Shown here: positions 1,500 to 27,924 of the stretch, piece after piece | Layout of the letters: every line of letters begins with the position of its first letter | Numbering within the stretch: the stretch's first letter is position 1 | Virus record (IMG/VR): IMGVR_UViG_3300037312_000927 | Direction: 5' to 3' (one strand) | DNA length: 64,000 nucleotides | Origin: a virus | Notes under the pieces: generated by a model | Seen by the model: only the letters and a program-made list of their open reading frames with translations | Database searches by the model: none | What the model was told of the DNA's origin: nothing | Made by a program: the position numbers and the translations under genes

Positions 1500-1521
1500 A
1501 ACTTGTGAAGTTCTTTCAAGA

Positions 1522-1890: not shown

Positions 1891-1983
1891 GCTCAACAGT
1901 TTCAATAATCTCCCTAGGTATTGGTATAATATAAGTAACATAGAAATATGTATCTTTTCTTATCATTAACCAGGGATCTGAAA

Positions 1984-2160: not shown

Positions 2161-2167
2161 TTTACCT

Positions 2168-2392: not shown

Positions 2393-2431
2393 GTCAATGA
2401 TTATTAAATATTAACTTCAAGGGGAAATCCT

Positions 2432-2677: not shown

Positions 2678-2704
2678 TCCAAGTCGCTTTAAGGTGCCTG
2701 TGAC

Positions 2705-2934
2705 AGAGGCTTTCTAATTAACCTCTAGATATCAATCAACGAGGGTACTATGAAATAATCCAATCTAAACCCATTTGAGTCGAGCGTACAAAAGGTACGC
2801 ACTTGAGTATAGATACCAGGCCGGCAAGCTCGACACATCGGAAGAGGTTAACTAACGATTCCTAGTTCGGTGTGGCTAAACAGAGCACATCAAGCAGTAC
2901 CCACCGCTCCGGCTGAATCAGTGCGGGGCGGTGG
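2705..2934 (+). ncRNA. candidate structured ncRNA or tRNA-operon leader
   Basis: Nested pairings 2718-2726/2843-2851, 2779-2783/2830-2834, 2784-2789/2795-2800; terminal hairpin 2901-2934; no long ORF. Confidence 0.45.
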
Positions 2935-2940
2935 TCCAAA

Positions 2941-3025
2941 CGGGAAGTGGCTTAGCGGTAGAGCGCTGTTGCGGGCGCCGTGCCCAGCACAGACAACAAA
3001 GGTTCGACTCCTTTCTTCCCGACCA
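2941..3025 (+). ncRNA. tRNA-like RNA with an elongated, non-canonical anticodon arm
   Basis: Acceptor CGGGAAG/CTTCCCG + A + CCA, D-arm GCTT-AGCGGTA-GAGC, T-arm AAAGG-TTCGACT-CCTTT. The anticodon arm is 27 nt instead of 17. Confidence 0.75.
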
Positions 3026-3047
3026 GAATTCATTCAATGAGGTTATC

Positions 3048-3224
3048 ATGTACATTACCTGGACTCTCCTCTTCATCGTCTCTGCAATACTCGGAGGACT
3101 CTTCGGGGATGTAGGTATGATAGCAACAGCAGGTGGTCTGTTTTCCATTTCGCTGGTTTCGGCTATAGCACTGTTAGCAACCTGGATTGACCAGGGTAAC
3201 AAAAGAATTAAAAGACGGAGTTGA
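3048..3224 (+). CDS. small membrane protein
   Basis: GAGG RBS, ATG at 3048, two hydrophobic segments and a basic C-terminus. Confidence 0.7.
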   Translation: MYITWTLLFIVSAILGGLFGDVGMIATAGGLFSISLVSAIALLATWIDQGNKRIKRRS

Positions 3225-3249
3225 CGAACTCTGACATATTAGTTAAAAT
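3221..3249 (+). promoter_or_regulatory. sigma70-type promoter for tRNA-Gly
   Basis: TTGACG-17 nt-TAAAAT, 12 nt upstream of the tRNA. Confidence 0.65.
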
Positions 3250-3261
3250 AGTATCTCAAAT

Positions 3262-3337
3262 GCGGGTATAACTCAGTTGGTAGAGTGTCAGCCTTCCAAG
3301 CTGTTCGTCGCAGGTTCGAGCCCTGTTGCCCGCTCCA
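3262..3337 (+). tRNA. trnG: tRNA-Gly(UCC)
   Basis: GCGGGTA/TGCCCGC acceptor, CT-TCC-AA anticodon loop, GGTTCGAGCCC T-loop, CCA. Confidence 0.95.
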
Positions 3338-3349
3338 ATTTTCCTTCTT

Positions 3350-3391
3350 ATCGCCGAGGTAGATCACAACGATCCCTCGGCGATTCTTTTT
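3350..3391 (+). terminator. intrinsic terminator
   Basis: ATCGCCGAGG/CCTCGGCGAT 10-bp stem followed by a T-tract. Confidence 0.7.
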
Positions 3392-3546
3392 CGTACCTAC
3401 ACCGATTCCCCATTTTCAAAATTACTCTAAAGGCATTTCGCCATAATACGTTGTTGACGCTGCGTAAGAGTAGAGAATGAGGAATCGGTGTGGGCACGCG
3501 TCCACTAGACCAATGTTGGTCATAACTCCAAATAAATAGGAAAAAT

Positions 3547-4455
3547 ATGTTCAATCTGAATACCACCGGCTTCTCCGCTAAAGTCCTGAACCGCATGTTC
3601 CGTCAGGTCGATGGCCTGAAATGGGATCTGCAGACCGGCTCGCTGGGCGTCGTCGGCAAGGATGGCTCCATCGCCACCCTGACCAAGAACGAAGTCGCAG
3701 CCAACGGAGACACCCCGGCGTCGGTCGAATACAACATCTCGATCAACCCGTTCGACCTGTTCTCGATCGCCATCCCGGCCTTCGCAACGCAGACCCGCAT
3801 CGAAAACATCAAGGAAGGCGACCTGGTCGTCGGCGCCGAGAAAATCCTGGGCTTCGTCATCGACAAGACCGACAAGTCGCTGAAGCTGCGTGACTTCGAC
3901 GGCTTCACCAAGAACTACACCCCGCCGAAGACCCAGATCCTGGGCCAAGATGGCGCGCTGGTCGTCCAGTCGCTGGGTAACCTGTTCGGCGGCCAAGCTG
4001 GCGTCGGTGGCTTCCAGAACATGCTGATGCCGCTGCTGCTGGCCAACGACAACAGCACCGAAGGTCTGGACTCGATCCTGCCGCTGATGCTGTTCAGCCA
4101 ACTGCAAACCACCAACCCGGCCGTCGCTGCAGACGCTGCAACCGCTGCTGGCAACCCGGCCCTGGCTGCGAACCCGATCGGTAACCTGCTGCCGCTGCTG
4201 CTGCTGAAAGGCGCCGGCAAGAAGAAAGCTGGCGGATCGACCGGCGGTGCACTGGGCGGCATCGATCCGATGATGCTGATGATGATGGGCGGCTTCGGCG
4301 GCGGCGCACAAGCTGGCGGCATGAATCCGATGATGCTGCTGGCCCTGGCCAAAGGCGGTTTCGGTGGCGATGACGAACCGGAAGCTCCGGCTCTGGTGTC
4401 GGTGCCGCGTACCAGCAACTCGGGCTTCGCTCCGGCCCTGACCCGTACCCGCTAA
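3547..4455 (+). CDS. hypothetical protein with Gly/Met-rich repeated PLLL/PMML helices
   Basis: 302-aa ORF with AGGA RBS and strong codon bias. Confidence 0.85.
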   Translation: MFNLNTTGFSAKVLNRMFRQVDGLKWDLQTGSLGVVGKDGSIATLTKNEVAANGDTPASVEYNISINPFDLFSIAIPAFATQTRIENIKEGDLVVGAEKILGFVIDKTDKSLKLRDFDGFTKNYTPPKTQILGQDGALVVQSLGNLFGGQAGVGGFQNMLMPLLLANDNSTEGLDSILPLMLFSQLQTTNPAVAADAATAAGNPALAANPIGNLLPLLLLKGAGKKKAGGSTGGALGGIDPMMLMMMGGFGGGAQAGGMNPMMLLALAKGGFGGDDEPEAPALVSVPRTSNSGFAPALTRTR

Positions 4456-4471
4456 TCCGGCGGTAACGGTC

Positions 4472-4499
4472 TTGCACATTGAGGCTGTTATGCTATAAT
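4472..4499 (+). promoter_or_regulatory. sigma70-type promoter with extended -10
   Basis: TTGCAC-16 nt-TATAAT with TGn immediately before the -10. Confidence 0.7.
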
Positions 4500-4637
4500 A
4501 GTCTCAATAAGGCAACCAAGTGGATTGGCGACCTACTGGCTTGCACCATCCGTGCACAGACGGTGGTTGCCCCAATAGCCTGTGCAAATAGTAGAACGGA
4601 AGAGACCTTGTTCACAAGACCGGGTCTCTTCCCCATA

Positions 4638-4717
4638 GGTAGCGTGCCTGAGTCTGGTCCAAAGGAACGGATTGCAAACCCGTAAAACCGCAGGTTCAAA
4701 TCCTGCCGCTATCTCCA
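4638..4717 (+). tRNA. trnC: tRNA-Cys(GCA)
   Basis: GGTAGCG/CGCTATC acceptor, TT-GCA-AA loop, GGTTCAAATCC, CCA. Confidence 0.93.
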
Positions 4718-4736
4718 ATAAACATAGAGGTAATAT

Positions 4737-4865
4737 ATGTGGATGAGTAACTTCGGGGAAGCTTTTAAAGCTTTATTGGTTCTGTCTATTATCGGATTTC
4801 TTTCCGGATGTGTGGGAGTAGGATATCTGATTTACTGGCTGATCAAACACGTACAGTTCGTCTAA
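4737..4865 (+). CDS. single-TM micropeptide 1 (42 aa)
   Basis: GAGG RBS; MWMSNFGEAFKALLVLSIIGFLSGCVGVGYLIYWLIKHVQFV; below the ORF-track cutoff. Confidence 0.75.
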   Translation: MWMSNFGEAFKALLVLSIIGFLSGCVGVGYLIYWLIKHVQFV

Positions 4866-4884
4866 ACGATTCGAAAGATTAAAC

Positions 4885-5040
4885 ATGAGCACGATAGGTG
4901 AAGTATTCGAAGAAGTAGGCAAAGGCTTCGAAAGCATTATCAAATGGGCTTGTATCGTTCTCATTCTCGCAGCTGGTTGCGGTCTGTGTGGTGCAGGTTT
5001 CCTCGTCTATTTCCTGTGTAAACATCTTCACTGGGTATAA
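4885..5040 (+). CDS. single-TM micropeptide 2 (51 aa)
   Basis: MSTIGEVFEEVGKGFESIIKWACIVLILAAGCGLCGAGFLVYFLCKHLHWV. Confidence 0.75.
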   Translation: MSTIGEVFEEVGKGFESIIKWACIVLILAAGCGLCGAGFLVYFLCKHLHWV

Positions 5041-5041
5041 A

Positions 5042-5191
5042 ATGAAAACGAATAAATACGAAGATCCCACGACGAAAGCATTCAATGCAATTGTCGGACC
5101 ATTCGTAATAGCCGCCCTTATCATCGGGGCAGGTGCCGCATCGGTGTTAGGTGCTGTCGGTTTCGGTATCTATTACGTCTGCACCCATTAA
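5042..5191 (+). CDS. single-TM micropeptide 3 (49 aa)
   Basis: MKTNKYEDPTTKAFNAIVGPFVIAALIIGAGAASVLGAVGFGIYYVCTH; starts 1 nt after the previous stop. Confidence 0.75.
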   Translation: MKTNKYEDPTTKAFNAIVGPFVIAALIIGAGAASVLGAVGFGIYYVCTH

Positions 5192-5197
5192 TCTTAT

Positions 5198-5274
<77 letters not shown>

Positions 5275-5288
5275 TCTTCCAAACTCCA

Positions 5289-5423
5289 ATGAACAACGTT
5301 AAATCCAATAGCACTAAACTGCTGATGGCTCTAGCGCTTGGGATCGTATTGTCCAAATGTGGCAACGCCCCGGTAACGAGCCCGATGCCATTTCCAGCAA
5401 AGGTACAATATGAAATCCAGTAA
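5289..5423 (+). CDS. small exported or lipoprotein-like peptide (44 aa)
   Basis: Basic N-terminus, hydrophobic core, LSKC; weak RBS. Confidence 0.45.
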   Translation: MNNVKSNSTKLLMALALGIVLSKCGNAPVTSPMPFPAKVQYEIQ

Positions 5424-5551
5424 ACAATCACTGCCTAAGCCTCGTACTAAACTGCACGAGGTTTTGGCAATGAAAGCTACCAGTGGAGCAACTGGGAAAC
5501 ACGCTTCGACAAAATTTAAACGAGCCCCTAAGCATAAGGGTCTCAATAACC

Positions 5552-5578
5552 ACGGGGACTTCGGTTCCCGTTTTTTTT
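5552..5578 (+). terminator. intrinsic terminator
   Basis: ACGGGGAC-TTCG-GTTCCCGT followed by a T-run. Confidence 0.8.
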
Positions 5579-5596
5579 AGTTCAATGGAGTTTAAT

Positions 5597-5824
5597 ATGA
5601 AGAAATATGCAATGATCCTTGCTATACTAATCCTGGCTGCTGGGTGTGCCAAGAAAGAAATACGTGATGAGCTTCAGGCTAACCAGGCTGCTGCAAAAGT
5701 AGAGATATTACAGTCGCAGTTGAAAACGTGCGAAAAGAATGGAGGGCTCCAACGTATCTCTTCAACCAGTAGTGGTGTTACCGTGGTATGTAAAAATGGT
5801 GTTCAAACTTGGATTTTTATTTAA
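5597..5824 (+). CDS. small lipoprotein (paralog A)
   Basis: GGAG RBS; MKKYAMILAILILAAG-C lipobox. Confidence 0.8.
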   Translation: MKKYAMILAILILAAGCAKKEIRDELQANQAAAKVEILQSQLKTCEKNGGLQRISSTSSGVTVVCKNGVQTWIFI

Positions 5825-5833
5825 GGGTTATAA

Positions 5834-6100
5834 ATGAAGAAATACGCAATGATTTTTGCTGTTCTGATCCTGGCTGTAGGCTGCTCTCCTAAATCTGAAA
5901 CTGAGGTAGAAAAGGAGAGAGTAGAACGGGTAAATTTGGCTAAGAAGAAAATACAGTTTTTACAGGAACAGTTTCATGCATGCGATAAAAATGAGGGTGT
6001 TAAAGACATCGACGGATACAACTGTTACAAAGGTGGATGTAGGGCCGTAATGATTGAGTGTAATGACGGCATGTCGAAGATCATGGATAAGGAATTTTAA
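5834..6100 (+). CDS. small lipoprotein (paralog B)
   Basis: MKKYAMIFAVLILAVG-C lipobox; shares KI.(I/F)LQ.Q...C.KN.G with paralog A. Confidence 0.8.
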   Translation: MKKYAMIFAVLILAVGCSPKSETEVEKERVERVNLAKKKIQFLQEQFHACDKNEGVKDIDGYNCYKGGCRAVMIECNDGMSKIMDKEF

Positions 6101-6411
6101 TGACAAAAGGTATTTGTAGAATAGGGGATTCTGTTACAGGGACATGCAGAGTTTCTGCCCCAGGTCATCCTCGTACCTTCACCGGTACTTGGAATACAGG
6201 GTCTGGAGTGGTAGAATGTGACGGCATCGGAGTCGTACGGGAGAACGACACTGGTACAACTGATTGCGGACATACATTCAAGGCCTTAGGTGGAGTCGAT
6301 ACTTTGAGCGGAGATGGGTTGAAGATGCAGCGAGTGGGCGATGCGGTAACTGTAGTCGGCGGTGGGGATGGAGTTTCTATCACTGGTTCGAGTAGCTCTA
6401 CTTCGGAATAA
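6100..6411 (+). CDS. PAAR-like / gp5.4-like spike tip protein
   Basis: Repeated RIGD/RVGD motifs, GHP and DCGH metal ligands, 103 aa. Confidence 0.7.
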   Translation: MTKGICRIGDSVTGTCRVSAPGHPRTFTGTWNTGSGVVECDGIGVVRENDTGTTDCGHTFKALGGVDTLSGDGLKMQRVGDAVTVVGGGDGVSITGSSSSTSE

Positions 6412-6413
6412 TC

Positions 6414-6617
6414 ATGATAACAAAAAGTCGTTACTGGGTAAAACCTAAAGCATGGCTCGTGGTAACTCCTGAGATATCCTACAGGTTAAGAAGGGATGAC
6501 TATGTGAGATATAAGGGTAGATGGCTTGTAATCTACAGAATCACAGAAGACAGTGGTATCCAGTTATCAAATTTCAAGTATGTGTGCCTGACTGAACTTG
6601 ATGACTTCAAAGAATAA
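6414..6617 (+). CDS. hypothetical protein
   Basis: ORF tightly packed in the operon. Confidence 0.55.
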   Translation: MITKSRYWVKPKAWLVVTPEISYRLRRDDYVRYKGRWLVIYRITEDSGIQLSNFKYVCLTELDDFKE

Positions 6618-6645
6618 ATAAATAAAACAATAATAGAATAAGAAA

Positions 6646-7473
6646 ATGACAAGTGGAATCAAAGTAAAAGTAGTAAAAGATAGCATTAATAAAGGCCAGC
6701 GACTGACTACTCTGCAGCTTCGCTATCACAGGTACATCCATGGTGAGTTTATGACTCACCGAGTATTTAGCCGTAATGCTTCAAGCAGCCGTGCAATCCC
6801 CGTTAAAACGATGCTGAAGCAAGTTTGGAGCGACCCTGCTATTCCGGTTCATTGGGGTGCTAATCAGCCCGGTATGCAGGCTAGGAGACATCTTGAAGGC
6901 TTTAAACTTTGGGCTGCTAGAAGTGCTTGGATCTTGGCTGCTAAATTAATGTGTGTCTTTGCTTATCTAATGATTCTCATCGGTCTGCACAAGCAGATTG
7001 CTAACCGTATTCTAGAGCCTTGGCAGTTCATCCACGTTATCGTCACTGCTACCGATTGGGATAACTTCTTCCTGTTACGAGATCACCCAGATGCTCAGCC
7101 TGAAATTCGAGAGTTGGCTGCGGAGATTAAGTACTGGATGGATCATTCGACCCCCAAACATCTCATGGATTGGGAATGGCACCTTCCTTACGTAACTGAT
7201 GAAGAGATTAAATTCGGTAGTCTCGAAGATTGCATCAAGATGTCCACTGCTAGATGTGCAAGGGTTTCATACCTTACCCATGATGGTAAAAAGCCTTCTA
7301 AAGAAAAGGATATTAAACTGCATGATGATCTGGTTGTAGCTGAACCAATCCATGCGAGCCCTTCAGAGCACCAAGCTATGCCTGCTAACGATGATAACTA
7401 CCATAAGAACTTCCGTGGCTGGGTTCAATATCGCAGTTTCGTAGAACGTAAAGAAATGCCTAAAGCAGCATAA
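6646..7473 (+). CDS. thyX: flavin-dependent thymidylate synthase ThyX
   Basis: EFMTHRVFSRNASSSRAIP motif; HKQIANRILEPW; SPSEH...NFRGWVQYR. Confidence 0.92.
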   Translation: MTSGIKVKVVKDSINKGQRLTTLQLRYHRYIHGEFMTHRVFSRNASSSRAIPVKTMLKQVWSDPAIPVHWGANQPGMQARRHLEGFKLWAARSAWILAAKLMCVFAYLMILIGLHKQIANRILEPWQFIHVIVTATDWDNFFLLRDHPDAQPEIRELAAEIKYWMDHSTPKHLMDWEWHLPYVTDEEIKFGSLEDCIKMSTARCARVSYLTHDGKKPSKEKDIKLHDDLVVAEPIHASPSEHQAMPANDDNYHKNFRGWVQYRSFVERKEMPKAA

Positions 7474-7496
7474 ATCTCAATTGCTGAAGTCGTAAT

Positions 7497-7505
7497 TGGT
7501 ATAAG
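7497..7505 (+). promoter_or_regulatory. recurrent phage promoter motif TGGTATAAG (one of at least 11 copies)
   Basis: Exact intergenic + strand copies at 7497, 8396, 14107, 16420, 16761, 19407, 19752, 24013, 24889, 63174, 63570, each upstream of a + strand gene; TGGTATAAT variant at 1922. Confidence 0.75.
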
Positions 7506-7575
7506 TTAAATACACAGATATATAAGATGCAGAATCAATTCTGTGTACTCACCCAACTTTTGAAGGAAATCAATT

Positions 7576-8322
7576 ATGAACTTCGGCATTCTCTATATTA
7601 TTATCACCTTCTTCGGCAAGGTCGTTGGCTCTTACGGTCAGTTCTTGATGCTCATCAGTCGTCTTACTGAAGACGGTTTCACTGTATTCAAAGACGTTGA
7701 GTATACCTTGACTCAATTGAGGTATGCTCACGTAAGGGCTCGTTTCGAAAAGGCTATACTCTTATCGATATCTGCATACACTGAGTTTCGTGGGGCTTTC
7801 AAGGATCTCAAAACGGAAGTTGAAAAGAACCCGGGTGATTTCGTAACCCTCAATTCCTTCGTCTCCAAATTGAAGAAGGATCTCCCGAAAGATATCGAAA
7901 GCATGATGGAAGGTCCCGGGGAGTTCCTCAAATCAGTCTCGGAAAACGATAATCTCCTAACCGTGCCGAAGTTCGTCCTGGACTCGTACGAGTATGTCTA
8001 TGCCGTAAACTTCGGCAAGAAGGTGTTGAATACCTCAGAGTTCACGGAGGTCTTCATCAAGCGTTACAAGGACGATCCTGAAGCCATGGAACGGGCTCTG
8101 AAGCGTGTTCAGCGCGACTTCCGTACGAAGGGCTATACGACTTTGTTGAAGCCCCTGAAGGACGGTGAGACGTCCGGGCAGTACGTATACTGGAGTGACG
8201 ACACTTTCCACGTGAATATCCCTGAAAAGAGTGCTAACGTCTTCGAGTTCAAAACTCCGAATTCAAACTGGCCGTTCACCAATGAGCAGGAAAAGAAAGA
8301 CGCTGGTAAAACCGGCGAGTAA
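7576..8322 (+). CDS. hypothetical protein
   Basis: 248-aa ORF with AAGGA RBS after the promoter motif. Confidence 0.8.
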   Translation: MNFGILYIIITFFGKVVGSYGQFLMLISRLTEDGFTVFKDVEYTLTQLRYAHVRARFEKAILLSISAYTEFRGAFKDLKTEVEKNPGDFVTLNSFVSKLKKDLPKDIESMMEGPGEFLKSVSENDNLLTVPKFVLDSYEYVYAVNFGKKVLNTSEFTEVFIKRYKDDPEAMERALKRVQRDFRTKGYTTLLKPLKDGETSGQYVYWSDDTFHVNIPEKSANVFEFKTPNSNWPFTNEQEKKDAGKTGE

Positions 8323-8327
8323 CACCG

Positions 8328-8353
8328 AAGCCCGGCACAAACCGGGCTTTTTT
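8328..8353 (+). terminator. intrinsic terminator
   Basis: AAGCCCGG/CCGGGCTT followed by TTTT. Confidence 0.8.
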
Positions 8354-8468
8354 AGCTCTGCAATATTGATGAGTTTCAATTGTAGTGTCTGGTTTTGGTA
8401 TAAGAGAAGTAGACGGGAACATATCCCGTTGTTTTCAACAACGTTAATAACCACCCAGGAGTCTAGAA

Positions 8469-9398
8469 ATGCTGAAAGCAAACCAAAACGCACGTGTCGT
8501 ATCGCTGGTCCTCAACTCGATCGGCTGCTCCTACACGTTCTTCGAAACCGAAACCGGTTCGATCCACAACGCCGCCGGTAAGTCCGTGACGAAAGAACTG
8601 GAGCACCTGGTCGGGGTCGTCTCCCGTACGGATGGTCAGGTGAAGGAGGCCATTGCCGGCCCCATTTCCCAACTCCAGCTCCTGAAGGCGGCGGTGGCTT
8701 CCCGCATGTTGCCGGGCGATCTCCTTCAGGAGGCTCGCAATACCATCCGGGATATGGAAGAAAAACTGGAAACGCCTTTGAAGAAAGCAAAGGCTATCCG
8801 CTCCGAACTGGAATCGGCCATGAAGCTCCTGGAATTCGCCAAGCTGTTCGATTACGAGAATAGCCCGAAAGAAGAGGTTCCTGTGCAAGCCGCCATGTCG
8901 GAAAACCGGGCTAAGGAACTCCTCCAGAACAGCAAGGCCATTGCCGAGCGACTGAGCGGTTTGACCGAACGCCTCAGCGATATGAACAAGGTGTCGTCGG
9001 CGAAAGTCCAGACGGAAAATCCGGACAAGGCACCACTCCCGGAAAACATCCGTTCCCTCGCCGGCAGTCTCCTCGGCCAACTGATCGGCGCCGAGTGGAT
9101 GAGGGCTCATGAAGCAAAGCCGGAAGAGCGTCAAGCTCCGGTCGAGGTCCAGGGCTGCGGTGAACCAGACTGCTTCCACTGTGGTGATGCAGATCTCCAA
9201 ACGGATGTCCAGAAGGGCCCGGAATCCATCATGCCCGAGTTTCTGGCGCGTCGTGACAAGACGGACGGTATGATGAAGCCCATCTTCTTCAGGCTGAATC
9301 CCGGCGAGTCGATCGAAGACGGCGTACGTCGCGCACTGAATATCGAAGGTGACTTTCACCTGGAATTCGGTAACCCCGATATGAAGACGTTCCACTAA
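8469..9398 (+). CDS. hypothetical coiled-coil protein
   Basis: 309-aa ORF with AGGAG RBS. Confidence 0.8.
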   Translation: MLKANQNARVVSLVLNSIGCSYTFFETETGSIHNAAGKSVTKELEHLVGVVSRTDGQVKEAIAGPISQLQLLKAAVASRMLPGDLLQEARNTIRDMEEKLETPLKKAKAIRSELESAMKLLEFAKLFDYENSPKEEVPVQAAMSENRAKELLQNSKAIAERLSGLTERLSDMNKVSSAKVQTENPDKAPLPENIRSLAGSLLGQLIGAEWMRAHEAKPEERQAPVEVQGCGEPDCFHCGDADLQTDVQKGPESIMPEFLARRDKTDGMMKPIFFRLNPGESIEDGVRRALNIEGDFHLEFGNPDMKTFH

Positions 9399-9411
9399 TC
9401 GGGGGTGAAGG

Positions 9412-9443
9412 ACGGAGCCCTAACAAGGCTCCGTTTCTTTTTT
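9412..9443 (+). terminator. intrinsic terminator
   Basis: ACGGAGCC/GGCTCCGT followed by a T-tract. Confidence 0.7.
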
Positions 9444-9474
9444 GTGCTTAACAAAGTTTATCTAAAGGAAATAT

Positions 9475-10368
9475 ATGAGTATCAAAGTTTTTGACGCCAA
9501 CGGTGCAGCTATCGAAGTAAGAATTTTCAACTTCAAAGGAGGTGAAGTTCAGGTAAGAGTGGATTCGTCTCATGTTCGTGATTATTACAAGATCCGGGCA
9601 GACATTACCTGTTCGGATGATGTAATGGCCTTGCTGTTGGTTACGGATGCCCTTCGTCACATGGACCCTGCAGTGAAGATTGATCTGGATTTGCCGTACG
9701 TTCCGTATGCTCGTCAGGATCGTGTCATGAACCCAGGAGAGGCTCTGTCGATCAAGGTATTTTGTGACTTGATTAACGCTCAGAACTACAACAGCGTGTT
9801 CATCTGGGATCCACATAGCGATGTGACTCCAGCTCTGCTGAAGCGGGTTGCCGTGATGCCCCAAGAAAAGTTGTTGATGTGTGATATGGATCTCATTATC
9901 GGGGAACTTGACTATACCAAATATTTGAAAAGCGGGTTGCGCCGCCAGGAAGCTGGGGCCCAAGCGTATAAGGATCGCATGGACAACATCGTCCTTGTTT
10001 CTCCTGACGCCGGCGCAAACAAGAAGATCTTCAAGGTTGCCCAGGAATGTGGTTTCAAACATGTCGTACGTGCTGACAAAGAACGTAATGTCGAAACCAA
10101 CGAAATCACCCGCACTGTCGTGTATAGCGATCACATCGGTGACAAGGACTTCCTGATCGTGGACGATATCTGTGATGGTGGCCGGACCTTTATCGAGTTG
10201 GCAAAGGTCTTGCGCCCGTTGACTAACGGCAAGATTATTCTTTACGTTACGCACGGCATCTTCTCGTATGGCCTGGGGCCGTTCAAAGGCCTGATCGATG
10301 AAGTGTACTGCGCCCACTCGTTCGGTAAGTTCGTCGAGAACGTGAACCTGATGACCGGTATCGAATAA
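9475..10368 (+). CDS. prs: ribose-phosphate pyrophosphokinase family protein; likely Adps of NARP1
   Basis: FKGGEVQV, LPYVPYARQDR, DPHS, VSPDAGA, LIVDDICDGGRTF (PRPP loop), LYVTHGIFS. Confidence 0.92.
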   Translation: MSIKVFDANGAAIEVRIFNFKGGEVQVRVDSSHVRDYYKIRADITCSDDVMALLLVTDALRHMDPAVKIDLDLPYVPYARQDRVMNPGEALSIKVFCDLINAQNYNSVFIWDPHSDVTPALLKRVAVMPQEKLLMCDMDLIIGELDYTKYLKSGLRRQEAGAQAYKDRMDNIVLVSPDAGANKKIFKVAQECGFKHVVRADKERNVETNEITRTVVYSDHIGDKDFLIVDDICDGGRTFIELAKVLRPLTNGKIILYVTHGIFSYGLGPFKGLIDEVYCAHSFGKFVENVNLMTGIE

Positions 10369-10550
10369 TGTACAAAGTCCTGATTACTACCTCGATATCA
10401 ACTCACTACGGGTGCCATGCGTCCAGCACTGTCGTAGAGTTTTACGGTAAAACTAATGCGGAAGATGCGGTGGCCAATGCTGGTCAAAACAGCAGCCTAG
10501 AAACCGGGGTTGTTGTAACCGCTGTCCTTCTAAATCCTGAAGCTAACTAA
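10368..10550 (+). CDS. small hypothetical protein
   Basis: TAATG-coupled ORF between the Prs-like and NAMPT-like genes. Confidence 0.6.
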   Translation: MYKVLITTSISTHYGCHASSTVVEFYGKTNAEDAVANAGQNSSLETGVVVTAVLLNPEAN

Positions 10551-10565
10551 GAAAGGAAACCAGAG

Positions 10566-12440
10566 ATGTCCCAAACTAACACCCTGATCGCCCGCACTAA
10601 TACCTTCGAGCTGAAGCCCCAGTTCGCCCGTGATAGTTATAAGCTCGGCCACGACAACCAATACCCGGACGAGACCGAAGCAGTCTACACCAACATGACC
10701 TTCCGCAGTGCCAAGCACTTCCGCGTCCCGGACGTCTGCAAGTTCGACGGCAAGGTTGCCTGGCTCGGCCTGCAAGGCACGATGATGGAATACAAGGCCA
10801 TGTGGGACAAGCAATTCTTCAGCCGTCCGTGGAACGAAGTCGAAGCCGAGTACGTCCACCGTACGACACCGTTCATGGGTAAAGCCCCAGACACGACTCG
10901 TCTGAAATCATTGCACGACCTGGGTTATCTGCCGCTGCACGTAAAACAGATACCGGAGGGTAGCTATCTGAACATTGGCGTTCCGGCTTTCACTATCGTC
11001 AATACTCAACCCAACGAAGATCTCTTCGGCTGGCTGACGAATGCAACCGAGACGTACCTGTCAAACGAAAGCTGGAAGCTGCCGACCATCGCTACTATCG
11101 CCACGGCCTACCGTCGCATGTTCGACCACTACGCAGAACTGACCGGGGGTTCGATGGAGTTCGTGGACTGGCAAGGTCACGATTTTTCCGACAGGGGCAT
11201 GTCCGGATACATGGACGCGGCCAAGAACAACGCAGGCCACAACGTCGCCTTCCTGGGCAGCGACTCGGTCTCATCGGCTGACTGGATCACCTGGGCATAC
11301 TTCGCTGAAGAAAACTTCATCGCTGGTAGTGTCCCGGCTTCGGAACACGCTGTCTCCAGTCTGAACATCGCCGTGATCAAAGCCAAGATTAAGGACGACA
11401 TCGTTGCTATCAAGGCCAAAATCCAGGGCGCCGCTGGGCTCGAAGACTGGACCGAAGACGAACTGATGGCCGAAGCAGAATACCGCTTCTGTAAGCGCTA
11501 TATCACCGAAGTCTATCCGACTGGCGTGGCGTCCTACGTGGCTGACACCTATAACTTCTGGCGAGTGATCACCGAGATCGCTGCTCGCCTGAAGGACGAG
11601 ATCCTGGCTCGTCAGCCGGATGCCAGCGGTCTGGCCAAAGTCGTGTTCCGTCCGGATAGTGGTGATCCGGTGGAGATTCTGTGTGGTATCGAGATCCCTG
11701 ACTTCAGCAATGCAGAAGATCTGGAAGCAGCTAAAAGCTGGGCCCAGGAATACTACGTCGAGTTGGAGCGGGAGTCCACGGCGCATGGCCAGTCCGGTAG
11801 CCCTGAAGTCGAAGGATATTTCCGATACCAAGACCATGTGTATTGGATCAAGGTAGAGATCGAGTGGAACCGTCATGATAAACAGTATTACTACATGGAT
11901 GGTAACCGCATTCTGGACGTGAAATCTGCAGTTCTCAGCCCGGAGCAAAAAGGCGCTGTCGAATGCCTGTACGATATCTTCGGTGGTACCGTGACCGAGA
12001 AAGGCTTCAAGCAACTGCACGAACGTGTCAGTCTGATCTATGGTGACTCGATCACCCCGGAACGTGCTGACCAGATCATGCGTCGTTTGATGGCCAAAGG
12101 TTTCGCTTCGACCAACTGGGTTGCCGGTATCGGTTCGTACACCTATCAATACATCACCCGTGACACTTTCGGTGCTGCACTGAAAGCGACCAATGCTGAA
12201 GTCGACGGCGTGGCTCACGAAATCTACAAGGATCCGATCACCGATCCGGGTAAGAAATCGGCCAAGGGCCTGCTGCGTGTCGAATACGAGAACGGTAACT
12301 TCGTTCTCTACGATCAGCAGACGCCGGAACAGGAACGGCAAGGTGTGCTGCAGGACCTGTTCATCAACGGCGAGTTCTTCAACCTGGTGAACTGGACTAC
12401 GGTCCGTGAACGCTTCGGTTTGGTGAAGTTGAACGTGTAA
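10566..12440 (+). CDS. nadV: nicotinamide phosphoribosyltransferase family protein; likely Namat of NARP1
   Basis: DSYKLGH, HDFSDRGMSG, GSVPASEH, SYVADTYN, VFRPDSGDP, LIYGDSIT, KDPITDPGKKSAKG. Confidence 0.93.
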   Translation: MSQTNTLIARTNTFELKPQFARDSYKLGHDNQYPDETEAVYTNMTFRSAKHFRVPDVCKFDGKVAWLGLQGTMMEYKAMWDKQFFSRPWNEVEAEYVHRTTPFMGKAPDTTRLKSLHDLGYLPLHVKQIPEGSYLNIGVPAFTIVNTQPNEDLFGWLTNATETYLSNESWKLPTIATIATAYRRMFDHYAELTGGSMEFVDWQGHDFSDRGMSGYMDAAKNNAGHNVAFLGSDSVSSADWITWAYFAEENFIAGSVPASEHAVSSLNIAVIKAKIKDDIVAIKAKIQGAAGLEDWTEDELMAEAEYRFCKRYITEVYPTGVASYVADTYNFWRVITEIAARLKDEILARQPDASGLAKVVFRPDSGDPVEILCGIEIPDFSNAEDLEAAKSWAQEYYVELERESTAHGQSGSPEVEGYFRYQDHVYWIKVEIEWNRHDKQYYYMDGNRILDVKSAVLSPEQKGAVECLYDIFGGTVTEKGFKQLHERVSLIYGDSITPERADQIMRRLMAKGFASTNWVAGIGSYTYQYITRDTFGAALKATNAEVDGVAHEIYKDPITDPGKKSAKGLLRVEYENGNFVLYDQQTPEQERQGVLQDLFINGEFFNLVNWTTVRERFGLVKLNV

Positions 12441-23982: not shown

Positions 23983-24070
23983 GCTTAAGAATTCATTTAT
24001 TGATAAGTGAAATGGTATAAGAATAGTATATAGATAACACCCTATATTTATCTAACACTAGGAGATTATA

Positions 24071-24460
24071 ATGGGACATACCTTGAGTGCTGTTGTGTTG
24101 GTTCTGATCGCAGTAATTATCTGCAAATCGTTGGACAAATTTCTTAATGACCCTAGTATATCCCCGGATCAGTGTGGAGATTGGGTTTCTGAAGTAGTGC
24201 TATGTGGCAGGGACTACGAGCTGGTTCTATACCGCCAGAGATACAAAACAGCGGTTGATGCAGACGCTCACGGTACGAAAATCTGCGGAAAAATCCATGG
24301 ATTTTTCAAAAAGGCTTTACCATATGACTCTGTAAGGTCCGTATTTCAGACTAAGAATCACGGTGAAGTTTTCCTCTCTGTACGGACCGACGGAGTGGCT
24401 CGTGAGTATCACGGGAATATTACCGCAACGGATTTACGAAACGTGGCTCAATGCGTTTAA
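24071..24460 (+). CDS. membrane-anchored hypothetical protein
   Basis: AGGAG RBS; N-terminal TM helix. Confidence 0.75.
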   Translation: MGHTLSAVVLVLIAVIICKSLDKFLNDPSISPDQCGDWVSEVVLCGRDYELVLYRQRYKTAVDADAHGTKICGKIHGFFKKALPYDSVRSVFQTKNHGEVFLSVRTDGVAREYHGNITATDLRNVAQCV

Positions 24461-24484
24461 ACACGAAAGTTAACAAGGAGTAAA

Positions 24485-24836
24485 ATGATCCCCATCATCG
24501 CCTACGTTATCATCCCCTCTCTGCTGTTCCTCATCGGAGGCTTCGGCATGCACCACGGACGTACCAGGCACAAGCCGGATCCCTATGGAAAGTGGTTGGC
24601 CAAAGTCTACGCAGTGGGTAAAAGGCCATAGCAAGAGACTGGTATTCCAGCAAAGGTATTCGTCGTTGGATAAAGCCGAAACCGTCGCCAAGGCTAAAGC
24701 TGATAAGCTCTACGTCAAGCTTTGCAAAATGCCTAACGGGGGTGAGGCTGAGTTCGATTACCTCATGTATGACACGGGTATCGTAAATATGTACGCACCC
24801 CGTACGATGTACCCGATAAATACGTATGATATCTAA
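24485..24836 (+). pseudogene. frameshifted paralog of 24071..24460
   Basis: ORF 24485..24631 (TM, PDPYGKW) continues in the +1 frame (RLVFQQRY) after the AAAA run at 24620-24623. Confidence 0.55.
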
Positions 24837-24837: not shown

Positions 24838-24869
24838 AAAAAAGCCAGGATATAAACCTGGCTTTTTTT
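24838..24869. terminator. bidirectional intrinsic terminator
   Basis: AAAAAAGCCAGG-atataaa-CCTGGCTTTTTTT. Confidence 0.8.
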
Positions 24870-24983
24870 AGATTAATAGTTACCAATTTGGTATAAGTAT
24901 AATGAGCTCAGCATTATGTATTACGGGGAGGAGTACTCTGGGTGCAGTAATCCAACTGCAACTTTACTTTAATAGGGGGTAGT

Positions 24984-25451
24984 ATGACACTCGTTAATTC
25001 TGATATGCAAATTATTACTACATCTAGAAAACGTTTTGTGTACAGGGACGCCCAATCCTTAGTAGGACAGCCTCTGATAGGAAATGGTGAATGTGTCGCC
25101 TTGGCACAGCGTTTATTCCCCGGGTTAGGTCATACCTCGACTTGGAAGGCCGGTAAAAGGGTGGTTGAATGTAAGGATTCCGAAATACCTATAGGCACAC
25201 TAATAGGTACTTTAGTAGATGGTAAATGGCCGGGGCGAGCCCACGGTAATCATGTTGGCATATACGGAGGATCTGCCAAACGCAGTGTTACTACCGGTAA
25301 TATTACATCATTCGTCTTGGTTGAACAGTTTCGCCACCCAAATGTAACGAAGATACAGGCCAGGGAGCTCCACAATAAGGGCAAAGGCCCTAATGGTCGA
25401 TACGTGGACATTTCGAATAATGCAGGTGCATTCTACATTATAGAGAAATGA
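24984..25451 (+). CDS. T6SS-type peptidoglycan amidase effector, Tae2-like (BPSL0067-type, NlpC/P60 Cys-His)
   Basis: GNGECVAL (catalytic Cys), TSTWKAG, GNHVGIY (His), VEQF, SNNAGAFYII; no signal peptide. Confidence 0.75.
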   Translation: MTLVNSDMQIITTSRKRFVYRDAQSLVGQPLIGNGECVALAQRLFPGLGHTSTWKAGKRVVECKDSEIPIGTLIGTLVDGKWPGRAHGNHVGIYGGSAKRSVTTGNITSFVLVEQFRHPNVTKIQARELHNKGKGPNGRYVDISNNAGAFYIIEK

Positions 25452-25879
25452 AAAACTTCCTCATATGTATATTACTTACCCACTCTTACGCATTTTCGAG
25501 TGACACGGTAGTCTGCCCCTCCGAATATTCTACGGAGAATTTAATCACTAAAACTCCAAACGGATGGGAGGGATTAGCTTATGCACCCGGGCCTAGGATG
25601 GTTTTAAGATATGCCGGGGTCCTGGTAGGGGATCCTAAAGTGAGTGCTCAAGGCATTCAGATTCCTCAACCGTCCCTTAAAGTTAAAGGAGGCTTTAAAC
25701 TAAAGTTCCCGTATTTGGATAAGTTTACAGAACCCCTTGAAAAATGGGTGTATTGCGCCTATGGAATAGGAGGAGATGTACAGCTTCTTAAAAAGGTATC
25801 TGATAATACCAAAACTTGTGAAGCAGTCTTTAAAGGGAATGAAAATACCGTAAGTGGGATTACGGTTATTTGTAATTAA
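25448..25879 (+). CDS. periplasmic immunity protein, Tai2-like (STY0301-type)
   Basis: ATGA overlap with the amidase gene; Sec signal peptide; CP...P.GW...G.P...W.YC.Y...C...C four-Cys pattern. Confidence 0.7.
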   Translation: MKNFLICILLTHSYAFSSDTVVCPSEYSTENLITKTPNGWEGLAYAPGPRMVLRYAGVLVGDPKVSAQGIQIPQPSLKVKGGFKLKFPYLDKFTEPLEKWVYCAYGIGGDVQLLKKVSDNTKTCEAVFKGNENTVSGITVICN

Positions 25880-25886
25880 TAGATTA

Positions 25887-25914
25887 AATCCCTGGATGCT
25901 CAGGGATTTTTTTA
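25887..25914. terminator. terminator at the convergent strand switch
   Basis: AAATCCCTG-gatgct-CAGGGATTTTTT. Confidence 0.75.
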
Positions 25915-25917: not shown

Positions 25918-26193
25918 TCATTTAGTGCATTCACTCAGAGCTGCTTTGAGTTCCGTATTCTGACCCTTTAGTAGTTTGTTCTCAGACATTAAGGCTATAA
26001 CTTTTTCATACAGAGTCATATCTTTGTCTAAGTTCTGGGTTGGATACTCAGTTATTTCAGTAACCTTAACGGTAGGTTCGCACTTTGTAGCAATAGGGAC
26101 ATGGACTATCTGAGTTTTAGTGACTGGGTTAGTAGCACACCCTGATAACAGAAGCATGCTCGTTAGAAGCAACGCAATACATAGTTTGATCAT
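25918..26193 (-). CDS. o-spanin (Rz1-like lipoprotein)
   Basis: LLLSG-C lipobox; directly after the i-spanin. Confidence 0.85.
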   Translation of the reverse strand: MIKLCIALLLTSMLLLSGCATNPVTKTQIVHVPIATKCEPTVKVTEITEYPTQNLDKDMTLYEKVIALMSENKLLKGQNTELKAALSECTK

Positions 26194-26636
26194 TTTGGGC
26201 TCCTTGAATCAATCATCTCATTCATAAGTTGCTGAGTAGCAAGATAGTCCTTCAGTTGAGCTTCTTTATCGCTGCCGCCATATTGGGACTGATTTTGAAG
26301 TGTTACCACAGGCTGAATAGGTTTGCGAAGATTAAGGCTCTCAGAAGCCTTATAATCGACCACAGCCTGCTTTTTAGCATCATCTAGGGCTGCTCTAGCT
26401 TTGGAAGTAATTTCGTCTTCACGGGCCTTTAAAGCGTCCGTAGCCCCACTGCATTCTGTCAAGGCCGATATCTTATCATCGTAAGACTCTTTCAGGGCAG
26501 CGAAATTTACCTCTAGGGTTTTATATTTGTCTGACAGATGATTACAGTACAATCCTAACCCTAGCACAACTAAGGTTATTAGACCACACAAAATCTGTTT
26601 AATAGATAGGTTTGGCATAGTAGGAATTCCACACAT
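26190..26636 (-). CDS. i-spanin (Rz-like)
   Basis: N-terminal TM and coiled coil, between endolysin and lipoprotein. Confidence 0.8.
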   Translation of the reverse strand: MCGIPTMPNLSIKQILCGLITLVVLGLGLYCNHLSDKYKTLEVNFAALKESYDDKISALTECSGATDALKAREDEITSKARAALDDAKKQAVVDYKASESLNLRKPIQPVVTLQNQSQYGGSDKEAQLKDYLATQQLMNEMIDSRSPK

Positions 26637-27172
26637 TATACACCTAGTACTTTTTTAGCTCTAGACCAATAGTTCATACGATCATCCAGCCCATTATAAC
26701 CACCGTTTATACGTTTTGTGACGAGCTTGAATGCATCTTCCGTATTATCAATAGCGATGCTATTAAGCTTTTTATTATTCCAAAACCATCCCGCACTTTT
26801 GGTTGCCCATTCCGGGGTCTCTAGAAGTTCTGGCTTGTTTATAAAATCTACACCGAATGCCTTAGACAGTTCAGTGTAATTTGAACGACCGGTAATCTGT
26901 ATAAGACCTCGGCCTTTAAAACGTGCACCGTCACCTTTTTGGATGTTGCCTAAATCTTTTCTGCCTTCGTAAGCTTCACCACTTGCTAGTTCTTTAGTAT
27001 AGACACAGGCTCCCGACTCGTGCATTATTTGGGCGATGAACATTGCTACTTGACTAGGCGTGTTGATGCCATAGGCCAAAAGGGTCTCGTTTATATATTT
27101 AATATATAAGCTGAGTTTAGGCTCTTTGATAGTCGGAGCAATGGCGGAGAGCTGTTCTTTAGTTAAAGACAT
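26636..27172 (-). CDS. endolysin, glycoside hydrolase family 19
   Basis: AQIMHES, YEGRKDLGN, FKGRGLIQITGRSNY, INGGYNGLDDR. Confidence 0.93.
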   Translation of the reverse strand: MSLTKEQLSAIAPTIKEPKLSLYIKYINETLLAYGINTPSQVAMFIAQIMHESGACVYTKELASGEAYEGRKDLGNIQKGDGARFKGRGLIQITGRSNYTELSKAFGVDFINKPELLETPEWATKSAGWFWNNKKLNSIAIDNTEDAFKLVTKRINGGYNGLDDRMNYWSRAKKVLGV

Positions 27173-27178
27173 GATGAT

Positions 27179-27541
27179 TTACTTTTTAGAAAATATCTCT
27201 TTCAGTAGTTGTTTAATCTTATTTTTAAGAGGCGCTTTCATAAGGATTGATGCCTCATAAAAAAGTACCCAGCTTAATAAAACTACCATAGTGATCTGAA
27301 ATGTATTGAACGTTGAATGATATTTCAGAAATTCGTCAGGGGCCAGCAGAACCATAAATAGGTTGCTTATAGCTTCTATATTTATGAATGCCAGAATATA
27401 CTTAAGGGAAGTAACCCCTATACCCTTTATATTAGTCAATTCTAGGGCAGCTACGAAAGATACTGCTCCTAGAACTGAACAAAGCAGAGCTGTGGAAAAC
27501 AGCTCTGGATTCGTCACGATAAGGTACAGATTCTCCATCAC
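27179..27541 (-). CDS. multi-TM membrane protein (holin/antiholin candidate)
   Basis: Three to four hydrophobic helices, basic C-terminus, within the lysis cassette. Confidence 0.65.
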   Translation of the reverse strand: MMENLYLIVTNPELFSTALLCSVLGAVSFVAALELTNIKGIGVTSLKYILAFINIEAISNLFMVLLAPDEFLKYHSTFNTFQITMVVLLSWVLFYEASILMKAPLKNKIKQLLKEIFSKK

Positions 27542-27924
27542 TGAGAGTCTCCTTTATCCTTTTCAGGACCTAAAGTGGTTCCAATAGTTCTATTTACTAA
27601 ACTAGTCAGCACGTCTCCTCCTCGATCTTCGATCCATTTTAGCAAGGCTCTAACGACGAAAACCCCGGTTGCACCCATAACCCAGGAGAGGGCAACGACA
27701 CCTTCTAGAGATGTAACGTTCAGTTTTTGGGCAAGCCAAGGACCTACGAATATAGAGAAATTGGATCCTGTTATTGCCATGAAGAATCCATTAATAGCTG
27801 TGATCTTGGCCCTGTCTGCCAGAGCAAGGATAGGTATAATGCTTCCACATACCCCTGCTACAATACTCCATATTTTCGCTATTGAAAAATAGGTAGCAAC
27901 CGATGTTGATACTGGTTCCGTCAT
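27538..27924 (-). CDS. holin candidate
   Basis: Three TM segments, charged C-terminus, upstream of the endolysin. Confidence 0.7.
   Translation of the reverse strand: MTEPVSTSVATYFSIAKIWSIVAGVCGSIIPILALADRAKITAINGFFMAITGSNFSIFVGPWLAQKLNVTSLEGVVALSWVMGATGVFVVRALLKWIEDRGGDVLTSLVNRTIGTTLGPEKDKGDSQ

Follow-up and report, generated by a model that had tools for sequence, protein, structure and literature searches.

[quoted passage not shown] Such effector-immunity pairs are usually regarded as arms that belong to bacteria or to temperate elements resident in them, and that picture is altered by an intact, long-maintained Tae2/Tai2 pair that is wired into gene expression in a large phage of virulent type. 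The pair described here lies in a 64-kb window (the whole stretch of viral DNA that was analysed), where it faces the genes for host lysis, and the uses that it might serve are weighed below against its sequence, its wiring and its relatives.

Genomic setting

The pair occupies the + strand and consists of ORF A (24984-25451, 155 aa, without signal peptide), which carries the stretches GNGECVALAQ and GNHVGIYGG, and ORF B (25448-25879, 143 aa, with signal peptide). A Shine-Dalgarno sequence (AGGGGG, 24974-24979, + strand) can be read 4 nt 5' of the ORF A ATG, and the start ATG of ORF B shares an ATGA with the TGA of ORF A, an overlap by which ORF B is, on its gene layout, translationally coupled to ORF A. 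The same order of effector followed by immunity gene recurs in the homologous loci L003, L004, L005, L006, L025, L027 and L036.

Convergent with the pair on the - strand, and not co-transcribed with it, stands a lysis cassette (25918-27924) that is complete with holin, endolysin and two spanins. Its genes code for an o-spanin lipoprotein (25918-26193, LysC/Rz1-like match), an i-spanin (26190-26636, Rz-like match), a GH19 endolysin (26636-27172; phrog_181, 2.6e-58; Glyco_hydro_19), a 120-aa membrane protein (27179-27541) and the holin (27538-27924, phrog_2359). An earlier note on this DNA had described a signal-less 155-aa protein with Cys-His motifs, ATGA-coupled to a 143-aa Sec-signal protein with four Cys and converging on a spanin-endolysin-holin block; this layout was borne out, with the precision that ORF B has five cysteines, four in the mature part (C23, C103, C124 and C142) and a fifth (C7) in the leader. 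Its term 'jumbo' phage has to be dropped: the identical ORF A protein was found on metagenomic contigs of up to 185,024 bases, and the phage is large (~185 kb) but below the 200-kb threshold. It is known from metagenomes only and is of virulent type by appearance. Elsewhere in the window, a PAAR-like ORF (6100-6411) that had been considered as a second T6SS link was rejected (NCBIfam 17.7 bits vs a cut-off of 124, no Pfam or PDB match).

Protein families and predicted structures

ORF A passed the NCBIfam model NF033857 (BPSL0067_fam) with 115.1 bits (cut-off 27, E 2e-33, profile positions 2-115 of 115) and, in a sequence comparison, matched 6WIN, the crystal structure of Tae2 (E 1.2e-16), with the Cys and the His aligned. 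Its predicted model (pLDDT 91.7) led to the same structure in Foldseek (E 2.7e-10, TM 0.74/0.82, rmsd 2.1), at ~28% identity over the structural alignment and with a 17-residue N-terminal extension; the runners-up were CHAP endolysins (E 0.03 or worse), and the weaker structural neighbours CHAP/NlpC-P60 endolysin domains. 6WIN is the sole solved relative of ORF A, and because it is the closest match in both fold and sequence, with CHAP/NlpC-P60 far behind, the identity of an ordinary endolysin was rejected. Six residues (C37, W54, G71, H90, Q115 and R127) were invariant in a 36-sequence family alignment. By sequence and predicted fold, ORF A is an intact member of this family, a cytoplasmic papain-like peptidoglycan amidase with Cys37 and His90 as its predicted catalytic residues. 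Characterised Tae2 enzymes cut the mDAP-D-Ala cross-link of Gram-negative peptidoglycan and are toxic only in the periplasm, according to a passage of PMC10469887 that cites Russell 2012.

ORF B passed the NCBIfam model NF042415 (STY0301_fam; 56.5 bits, cut-off 22, E 2.5e-15), as did the partners of the ORF A homologues in L003 and L004. Its N-terminus is hydrophobic (MKNFLICILLTHSYAFSS), and inspection together with alignment points to a Sec-type leader of ~18-19 residues, on account of which the protein is probably exported to the periplasm. Across 25 homologues a hydrophobic leader was present in every row and the four cysteines of the mature part were invariant. The predicted model was all-beta (pLDDT 79.8, low over residues 1-20), and, judged by its family match, ORF B is an intact Tai2/STY0301-family immunity protein. 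Neither ORF had a match in Pfam, PHROGs or PADLOC; both were recognised by NCBIfam only. The Tae2/Tai2-like assignment put forward in the earlier note therefore holds, as ORF A and ORF B each pass the respective family model and 6WIN ranks first for ORF A, ahead of any ordinary phage endolysin. The Foldseek comparison that it had proposed for both proteins succeeded for ORF A; for ORF B, no PDB relative was found by sequence, by Foldseek or by a wide VIA-align search (best Z 4.5).

ORF B is predicted to bind ORF A. The model of the complex scored 0.75, against 0.00 for the best control, and by rough counts (own alignments used) 58 of 80 solved complexes attained that mark, compared with 2 of 110 mismatched pairs. 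Model runs agreed in at least 94% of contacts, with a partner pLDDT of at least 86, and the score is unlikely to be recall of a solved complex, since the PDB holds no Tai2 relative by sequence or fold. In the model, the conserved loop 65-72 of ORF B and its F93/T94 are packed on ORF A at a surface to which the catalytic His90 and the invariant Arg127 belong; the predicted interface comprises His87, His90, Arg127, Ser144 and Asn145 of ORF A and residues 65-72 and 93-95 of ORF B.

Transcription of the pair

Ahead of ORF A lies a promoter (24868-24897, + strand) composed of a -35-like TTAGAT (24868-24873), a 15-nt spacer and the extended -10 element TGGTATAAG (24889-24897). Eleven exact copies of TGGTATAAG occur within the 64-kb window, against ~0.5 expected there by chance (own arithmetic), all 11 on the + strand and ahead of + strand non-structural genes; in the window it never stands ahead of the - strand structural or lysis genes. 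Most copies have a TTCAAT-like box 14-15 nt upstream (consensus TTCAAT-N14/15-TGGTATAAG), and the weakest of these boxes is that of the pair.

Hairpins flank the pair on both sides. The upstream intrinsic terminator (24838-24869, + strand; -15.9 kcal/mol, z -4.9) has a GCCAGG/CCUGGC core followed by a U7 run, was equalled by 0 of 200 shuffles, ends the preceding small-gene unit and insulates the pair. The downstream terminator hairpin (25886-25909, + strand; -13.5 kcal/mol, z -3.5, then U7), placed between the pair and the spanin gene, folds on both strands (- strand: -12.7 kcal/mol, z -4.1). The promoter and terminator that the earlier note had ascribed to the pair are thus both in place and, on these signals, the pair is a transcription unit of its own under the phage's non-structural (early or middle) promoter class. 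Considered as a putative moron (phage accessory unit), it has its own promoter and terminators; its composition is not foreign to the phage.

Relatives and inheritance

The diverged relative L003 carries the pair at the same locus (59% and 37% identical), likewise beside the lysis cassette. There the pair is as diverged as the neighbouring genes (flanking genes 32-67% identical), and a true PAAR spike-tip gene adjoins it (match to 4JIW, E 1.2e-4). Despite 44-59% divergence, the window, L003 and L004 each code for an intact ORF A in which the six family-invariant residues are all present. The GC content of the pair (43.1%) is close to that of the window (44.4%), and its GC3 (0.37-0.40) is similar to that of late genes. 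To judge by locus and divergence, the pair is vertically inherited in a lineage of ~185-kb myovirus-like phages.

The closest sequences (61-66% identical for A, 43-45% for B) come from Massilia-like (Oxalobacteraceae) chromosomes; they are orphan pairs that consist of 155-aa and 144-aa proteins with an ATGA-type overlap at a fixed LysE-NIPSNAP locus and have 52-53% GC in chromosomes of 66%. Bacterial copies overall show the same pattern (GC 52-58% in chromosomes of 64-68%); the deficit was rejected as proof of transfer from phage to bacterium, the T6SS-cluster copy L036 having the same one. In Massilia aerilata (WP_379771871.1), a genome with ~9 Hcp matches, the effector is frameshifted near Arg127 and the immunity gene intact. 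Two further relatives are linked to T6SS genes: P0018 (39% identical) sits directly 3' of an Hcp gene, and P0017, which falls within the phage's own well-supported subclade and has a partner 40% identical to B, adjoins TssF/TssG.

In this subclade phage and phage-like copies stand together with chromosomal and transposase-adjacent ones, and monophyly of the phage copies was marginally rejected (p-AU 0.032). The subclade joins effector-immunity pairs that are chromosomal or T6SS-linked, not the separate clade (support 100/99) of solo copies from virion modules. In seven high-GC viral contigs such solo BPSL0067-family genes, without Tai2, are placed either immediately 3' of the large terminase or between tail and baseplate genes, which means that the amidase family is not exclusive to T6SS.

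Searches for precedent

The earlier note knew of no description of such a pair in a phage, and our searches agree with it. A set of 50,697 sequenced phage records yielded no match, either in tblastn with A and B or in megablast with the locus and with 20 kb of the window. Salmonella phage Arash and Vibrio phages D69/D181/D148, which by terminase are the sequenced phages closest to this one, have neither gene, and tblastn with the neighbouring dUTPase gene revealed no syntenic sequenced phage. IMG/VR scans with A alone and with a B alignment returned no relatives, BFVD held no fold match for A at E<=0.001, and a literature search found no paper on a Tae2/Tai2 pair in such a phage. Putative T6SS effector-immunity morons are already on record for temperate phages (PMC13366799).

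Possible functions of the pair

As its most likely use we tentatively propose, at a little short of an even chance, that the pair arms the infected cell through the host T6SS or shields it against one. In a T6SS-bearing Gram-negative host, the Hcp tube would take up ORF A for delivery into adjacent cells, ORF B would guard each infected cell against the A that other such cells send out (and against near relatives of A among the Tae2 toxins of competing strains), and the pair would represent a T6SS-conflict module borrowed by the phage. A periplasmic antidote makes sense only if the toxin enters the periplasm from outside, and this is the logic of T6SS immunity. That logic is documented for Tae2/Tai2 (PMC10469887). 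The T6SS linkage of the family relatives P0018 (Hcp) and P0017 (TssF/TssG) also counts in favour; such a genetic link is absent for the pair itself, with no Hcp, VgrG or Tss gene beside it in the 64-kb window of the ~185-kb genome or in L003. Against the proposal, for a virulent phage there would be little profit in the death of cells that it could still infect, and T6SS firing may be limited by host shut-off. Moreover, the solo copies in terminase and tail-baseplate modules indicate that phages also use the BPSL0067-family amidase without T6SS.

The homology of phage tail tube and hub proteins to Hcp and VgrG counts for the main rival, an unlikely one in our estimate, in which a virion-borne ORF A opens the wall locally at infection and a pre-late periplasmic ORF B neutralises the A of virions that arrive later, whether from the same phage or from related ones (superinfection exclusion). 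Its precedent is T4 Spackle, which inhibits the gp5 tail-spike lysozyme (PMC7677548), and it would account for the signal peptide and non-late promoter of ORF B, the solo family genes in virion/baseplate modules of other viral contigs and the PAAR spike-tip gene next to the pair in L003. ORF A is, however, co-transcribed with ORF B from the non-structural class, outside the - strand structural block, so that both position and promoter class speak against a putative virion component, and the phage's subclade joins the T6SS-linked and chromosomal pairs, apart from the solo virion-module clade. One may also propose, with rather little probability, that without any bacterial T6SS A would ride the phage's contractile tail into the periplasm at infection, where pre-late B would disarm the A carried by superinfecting virions.

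Equally improbable to us is that only the shield matters, B being selected for protecting the infected cell from Tae2-armed neighbours until burst, and A being kept through coupling or as a selfish addiction partner. Early or middle expression fits this, as does the immunity-biased state met in the same subclade, where M. aerilata keeps the immunity gene beside a frameshifted effector. Yet the retention of six invariant residues of A in the window, L003 and L004 at 44-59% divergence argues for selection on the enzyme, and a toxin that stays in the cytoplasm and is active in the periplasm alone has no means of addicting the cell that makes it.

More doubtful still is a neutral passenger, that is, a mobile effector-immunity cassette that passes back and forth between phages and bacteria without advantage to the phage. 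The mixed subclade, the marginally rejected monophyly of phage copies and the low GC of bacterial copies in their chromosomes would suit it; the retention of one locus across phages with core genes only 32-67% identical, a composition fully adapted to the phage and the wiring to a phage-specific promoter class do not. Finally, it is very improbable that A crosses the holin lesions to add an endopeptidase to the GH19 endolysin, with B buffering premature leakage: in the window as in L003 the pair does adjoin the lysis cassette, and CHAP/NlpC-P60 endolysin domains are among the weaker structural neighbours of A, but the pair is encoded on the strand opposite to the lysis genes and has a promoter and a terminator to itself, its TGGTATAAG class is absent from the - strand and thus from the lysis genes, a lysin would be thwarted by a stoichiometric inhibitor in the periplasm, the neighbouring cassette is complete without the pair, and the best structural match of A is Tae2.

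Taken at its preferred reading (arming through the host T6SS or shielding against one), the pair suggests that the phage joins bacterial warfare during infection and, if this is true, phages may shift who kills whom around the infected cell within a short infection window. Alternatively, phages may apply the same toxin-antidote logic among themselves; if A is tail-borne, the cargo-effector/immunity logic of T6SS would also exist in, or be inherited from, phage tails. The chromosomal orphan pairs of Massilia-like bacteria nest among phage copies and look compositionally foreign, and phages may for that reason be vehicles that spread such cassettes. In any case, with its two genes the pair is a clean system in which to ask if interbacterial antagonism is exploited or resisted by phages.

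Comparison with known systems

With the Tae2/Tai2 pairs of Salmonella Typhi SPI-6 and Burkholderia the phage pair shares families, fold, Cys-His residues, gene order and predicted binding; it differs from them in standing under a phage promoter class, outside a T6SS cluster and not beside Hcp, and in belonging to a separate well-supported subclade. The Massilia-like orphan pairs are alike in protein sizes and ATGA-type overlap, whereas they are chromosomal and compositionally foreign, with the effector frameshifted in M. aerilata.

The tick enzyme Dae2 is a secreted eukaryotic protein without an immunity partner, whereas the phage retains both genes and its ORF A has no signal peptide. In both cases a Tae2-family enzyme has moved out of its T6SS setting into another type of genome (bioRxiv 10.1101/2020.04.10.036376).

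Phage-borne interbacterial toxins with cognate immunity, for which the use of host secretion machinery has been proposed, are represented by the putative PAAR-TseV-TsiV of Burkholderia phages AB4/Milagro/Mana (PMC13366799) and by the prophage system Bxa/Bsi/BAH (PMC11699363). Those phages are temperate and the toxins a lasting trait of the lysogen, whereas the 185-kb phage is of virulent type and any effect of its pair is consequently limited to the infection cycle; toxin family and target differ as well (the cell wall here, nuclease activity or ADP-ribosylation there). T4 gp5/Spackle (PMC7677548) likewise joins a phage wall hydrolase to a small, pre-late, periplasmic inhibitor encoded by the phage, without any relation in sequence or fold; gp5, however, is a late tail-spike gene apart from Spackle, whereas A and B share one non-late operon and a virion location of A is putative.

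Amidase and immunity genes

The earlier note had described two coupled ORFs, and these were found on the plus strand at the place it gave: ORF A (24984-25451, 155 aa), which lacks a hydrophobic N-terminus and carries the motifs GNGECVAL and GNHVGIY, is joined by an ATGA overlap to ORF B (25448-25879, 143 aa), which begins with the Sec-type leader MKNFLICILLTHSYAFSS and retains four cysteines in its mature form. While Pfam, PHROGs and PADLOC recognized neither protein, the NCBIfam models assigned A to BPSL0067_fam (115.1 bits, cut-off 27) and B to STY0301_fam (56.5 bits, cut-off 22), which agrees with the amidase and immunity identities proposed beforehand. The sole solved relative of A is the Tae2 crystal structure 6WIN ('Type 6 secretion amidase effector 2', E 1.2e-16), with whose counterparts the Cys of GECV and the His of GNHV pair in the alignment. 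Six residues of A (C37, W54, G71, H90, Q115 and R127) are invariant in 36 family members, and the leader and four invariant cysteines are common to all 25 B homologues. By sequence comparison A is an intact Tae2-family Cys-His amidase that lacks an export signal; B, with modelling added, is its coupled immunity protein, which has a Sec-type leader and is predicted to bind it.

The AlphaFold model of A (pLDDT 91.7) matched 6WIN (E 2.7e-10, TM 0.74/0.82, rmsd 2.1) far ahead of CHAP and NlpC/P60 endolysin domains (E 0.03 or worse); because of this distance the ordinary phage endolysin fold, which the earlier note had named as the outcome that would count against it, was rejected. The structural comparison proposed for both proteins thus stood for A, while for B (all-beta model, pLDDT 79.8) no solved relative was found by sequence or by fold. 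The modelled complex of A with mature B scored 0.75 (best control 0.00); 58 of 80 solved complexes attain this mark, as do 2 of 110 mismatched pairs, counts that are only a rough calibration here because our own alignments were fed to the complex model. Three runs agreed in at least 94% of contacts (partner pLDDT at least 86). In the modelled interface, residues 65-72 of B (its most conserved loop, Q68 being invariant) and F93/T94 contact a patch of A that takes in His87, the catalytic His90 and the invariant Arg127, which supports a predicted binding at the active-site face of A.

Phage setting

The genes of the window include a large terminase, baseplate and tail-fibre proteins, NAMPT and six tRNAs, and a complete Gram-negative lysis cassette (holin, GH19 endolysin, i-spanin and o-spanin) converges on the pair, as had been claimed. 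The phage is large and, as judged from the 64-kb window, virulent-type; contigs with an identical A protein, present in several metagenomes, reach 185,024 bases, which is under the jumbo threshold, and its previous designation as a jumbo phage has to be dropped. A DNA-level search of sequenced phages returned no close relative, the nearest by terminase being Salmonella phage Arash (48%, 181 kb), followed by Vibrio phages D69/D181/D148 (46%, ~187 kb). A homing-endonuclease-like gene (61965-63104, minus strand, 379 aa) overlaps the large terminase gene at its start. Positions 1-12000 have a GC of 0.52-0.55 (~0.42 in the rest of the phage), and NAMPT (10566-12440) a GC3 of 0.68 (0.36-0.40 in late genes); this composition suggests that the block was captured recently from a bacterium of high GC, in keeping with a Massilia-like or Burkholderiales host.

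Transcription of the pair

Hairpins with U7 runs flank the pair on the plus strand, upstream (24838-24868, -15.9 kcal/mol, z -4.9) and downstream (25886-25909, -13.5 kcal/mol, z -3.5, where the opposite strand folds too), and an exact match to the 9-mer TGGTATAAG lies at 24889 (plus strand). This element occurs 11 times in 64 kb (7497, 8396, 14107, 16420, 16761, 19407, 19752, 24013, 24889, 63174 and 63570), against a calculated ~0.5 expected by chance, always on the plus strand and ahead of plus-strand nucleotide-metabolism genes and small unknown proteins; no exact copy in the 64-kb window precedes minus-strand structural or lysis genes. Most copies have TTCAAT 14-15 nt upstream, which amounts to a consistent -35 in this window (promoter class TTCAAT-N14/15-TGGTATAAG, exact -10), the weakest upstream box being the pair's own (TTAGAT). 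The promoter and terminator attributed to the pair were thereby confirmed and, since terminators lie on both sides and this promoter class never precedes structural or lysis genes, the pair reads as an autonomous two-gene operon within the phage's non-late regulon. The class could be early, with transcription by host sigma-70, or middle, in which case a phage factor would recognize the TTCAAT box. In T4 the MotA box is read by a phage factor, and the conserved TTCAAT-type box may, by analogy, be such a target.

A separate unit of the same promoter class lies just upstream (24013-24836, plus strand) and consists of three ORFs without a family match, one for a protein of 129 aa that has a membrane helix at its N-terminus and two of 48 aa and 83 aa. 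Within the structural block, a 241-aa protein (49578-50303, minus strand), whose match to Sigma-70 region 3 is weak (23.5 bits, slightly under the cut-off), could be a late sigma factor of the phage.

Relatives and evolution

A search of 1.84 billion representatives gave 224 clusters at E<=1e-3 and 30 at E<=1e-10, which makes the A family a small one; the contexts of its members sort into four kinds. In classical T6SS settings, one bacterial member (P0018) lies directly downstream of Hcp and another (P0017), whose partner shares 40% identity with B, adjoins TssF/TssG; of 201 genomes sampled from the bacterial family to which Massilia aerilata belongs, 34 have a match to the family model. The nearest relatives of the phage copy (61-66%) are orphan chromosomal pairs, which occupy one fixed LysE-NIPSNAP locus in Massilia-like bacteria; the M. 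aerilata genome has ~9 Hcp matches. At the M. aerilata locus (7953-8850 of L009, NZ_JBHSMZ010000010.1) a frameshift interrupts the effector immediately ahead of the invariant Arg127 (annotated 113 aa) and the downstream STY0301 immunity gene is intact, which reads as a decaying toxin with its antidote kept.

The full pair is also present on the phage or phage-like contigs L003, a true relative of the window's phage, and L004, which has the pair alone in common with the window and is otherwise unrelated. The survey of related phages that the earlier note proposed recovered the pair in L003; tblastn of A and of B against 50,697 phage records matched neither. In L003 a gene for a 98-aa true PAAR-motif protein (8196-8492, minus strand; matching PAAR structures 4JIW and 4JIV) directly adjoins the pair, between it and the spanins. 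At 5483-6411 of the window (plus strand), two paralogous genes for small lipoproteins (MKKYAMI...GC) are followed by a Gly/Thr-rich ORF of 103 aa (6100-6411), which the second of them overlaps by 1 nt and which lies outside the structural block; this ORF is 34% identical to the L003 PAAR protein but only weakly PAAR-like by models (17.7 bits, cut-off 124).

Lastly, seven IMG/VR contigs (L029-L035, GC 62-66%) carry BPSL0067-family amidase genes that stand alone (125-160 aa, scoring 67-75 bits), for which no Tai2 partner was found there, directly after the large terminase or amid genes for tail fibres, virion structure and the baseplate hub. Their products, from a family hitherto named only for T6SS, are candidates for wall hydrolases associated with the virion.

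The maximum-likelihood tree placed the window's A in a well-supported subclade (100/96) composed of L004 with P0017, then L003, then the window, inside which the Massilia-like copies form a tight cluster of their own; the solo viral copies formed a separate clade (100/99), and ordinary Burkholderiaceae Tae2 genes lay in the other half of the tree. Constraining the three phage copies together cost 27 log-likelihood units (p-AU 0.032), a marginal result for a group named post hoc from the tree. Because the pair (59% and 37% identical between window and L003) and its syntenic flanking genes (32-67%) are similarly diverged, it was probably already at this locus in the common ancestor of both phages. 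Its composition (GC 43.1%, GC3 0.37-0.40) matches the phage, and the comparisons establish, at the sequence level, long retention in a phage lineage. Every bacterial copy in the subclade is 10-15 GC points under its own chromosome; as the copy beside a T6SS cluster shares this deficit, it was rejected as a pointer to transfer direction, which it leaves unfixed.

Use of the pair by the phage

A periplasmic antidote would be of use only when the toxin comes into the periplasm from outside, for which the bacterial route is the T6SS. Given this route, the T6SS-cluster copies in the phage's own subclade and the T6SS-rich bacteria that hold its nearest chromosomal relatives, we consider it most economical, if tentative and somewhat short of an even chance, that the phage would hand A to the host T6SS as a cargo effector, while B would guard infected cells against A and close Tae2 relatives. 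The main rival, modelled on gp5/Spackle (PMC7677548), would have A virion-borne and B blocking superinfecting particles; solo family copies within structural modules of viral contigs and the PAAR gene adjoining the pair in L003 speak for it, yet A and B share one non-late operon and the tree separates the solo copies from the phage's subclade, and we regard it as improbable. That the pair acts as a shield only, as an auxiliary lysin or as a neutral passenger is less likely.

The supposition that no such pair had been described in a lytic jumbo phage agrees with the searches for phages at large: the same phage records contained no match, a BFVD fold search with A gave none at E<=0.001, and in a full-text literature search Tae2/Tai2 came up solely in connection with bacterial T6SS or tick Dae2. 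Phage-borne interbacterial toxin-immunity is itself known, from the putative PAAR-TseV-TsiV cluster of the temperate Burkholderia phage AB4 (PMC13366799) and from the interbacterial toxin Bxa with Bsi and BAH (PMC11699363). Whereas those systems belong to temperate phages or prophages, here a classical T6SS amidase pair is resident in a large virulent-type phage lineage.
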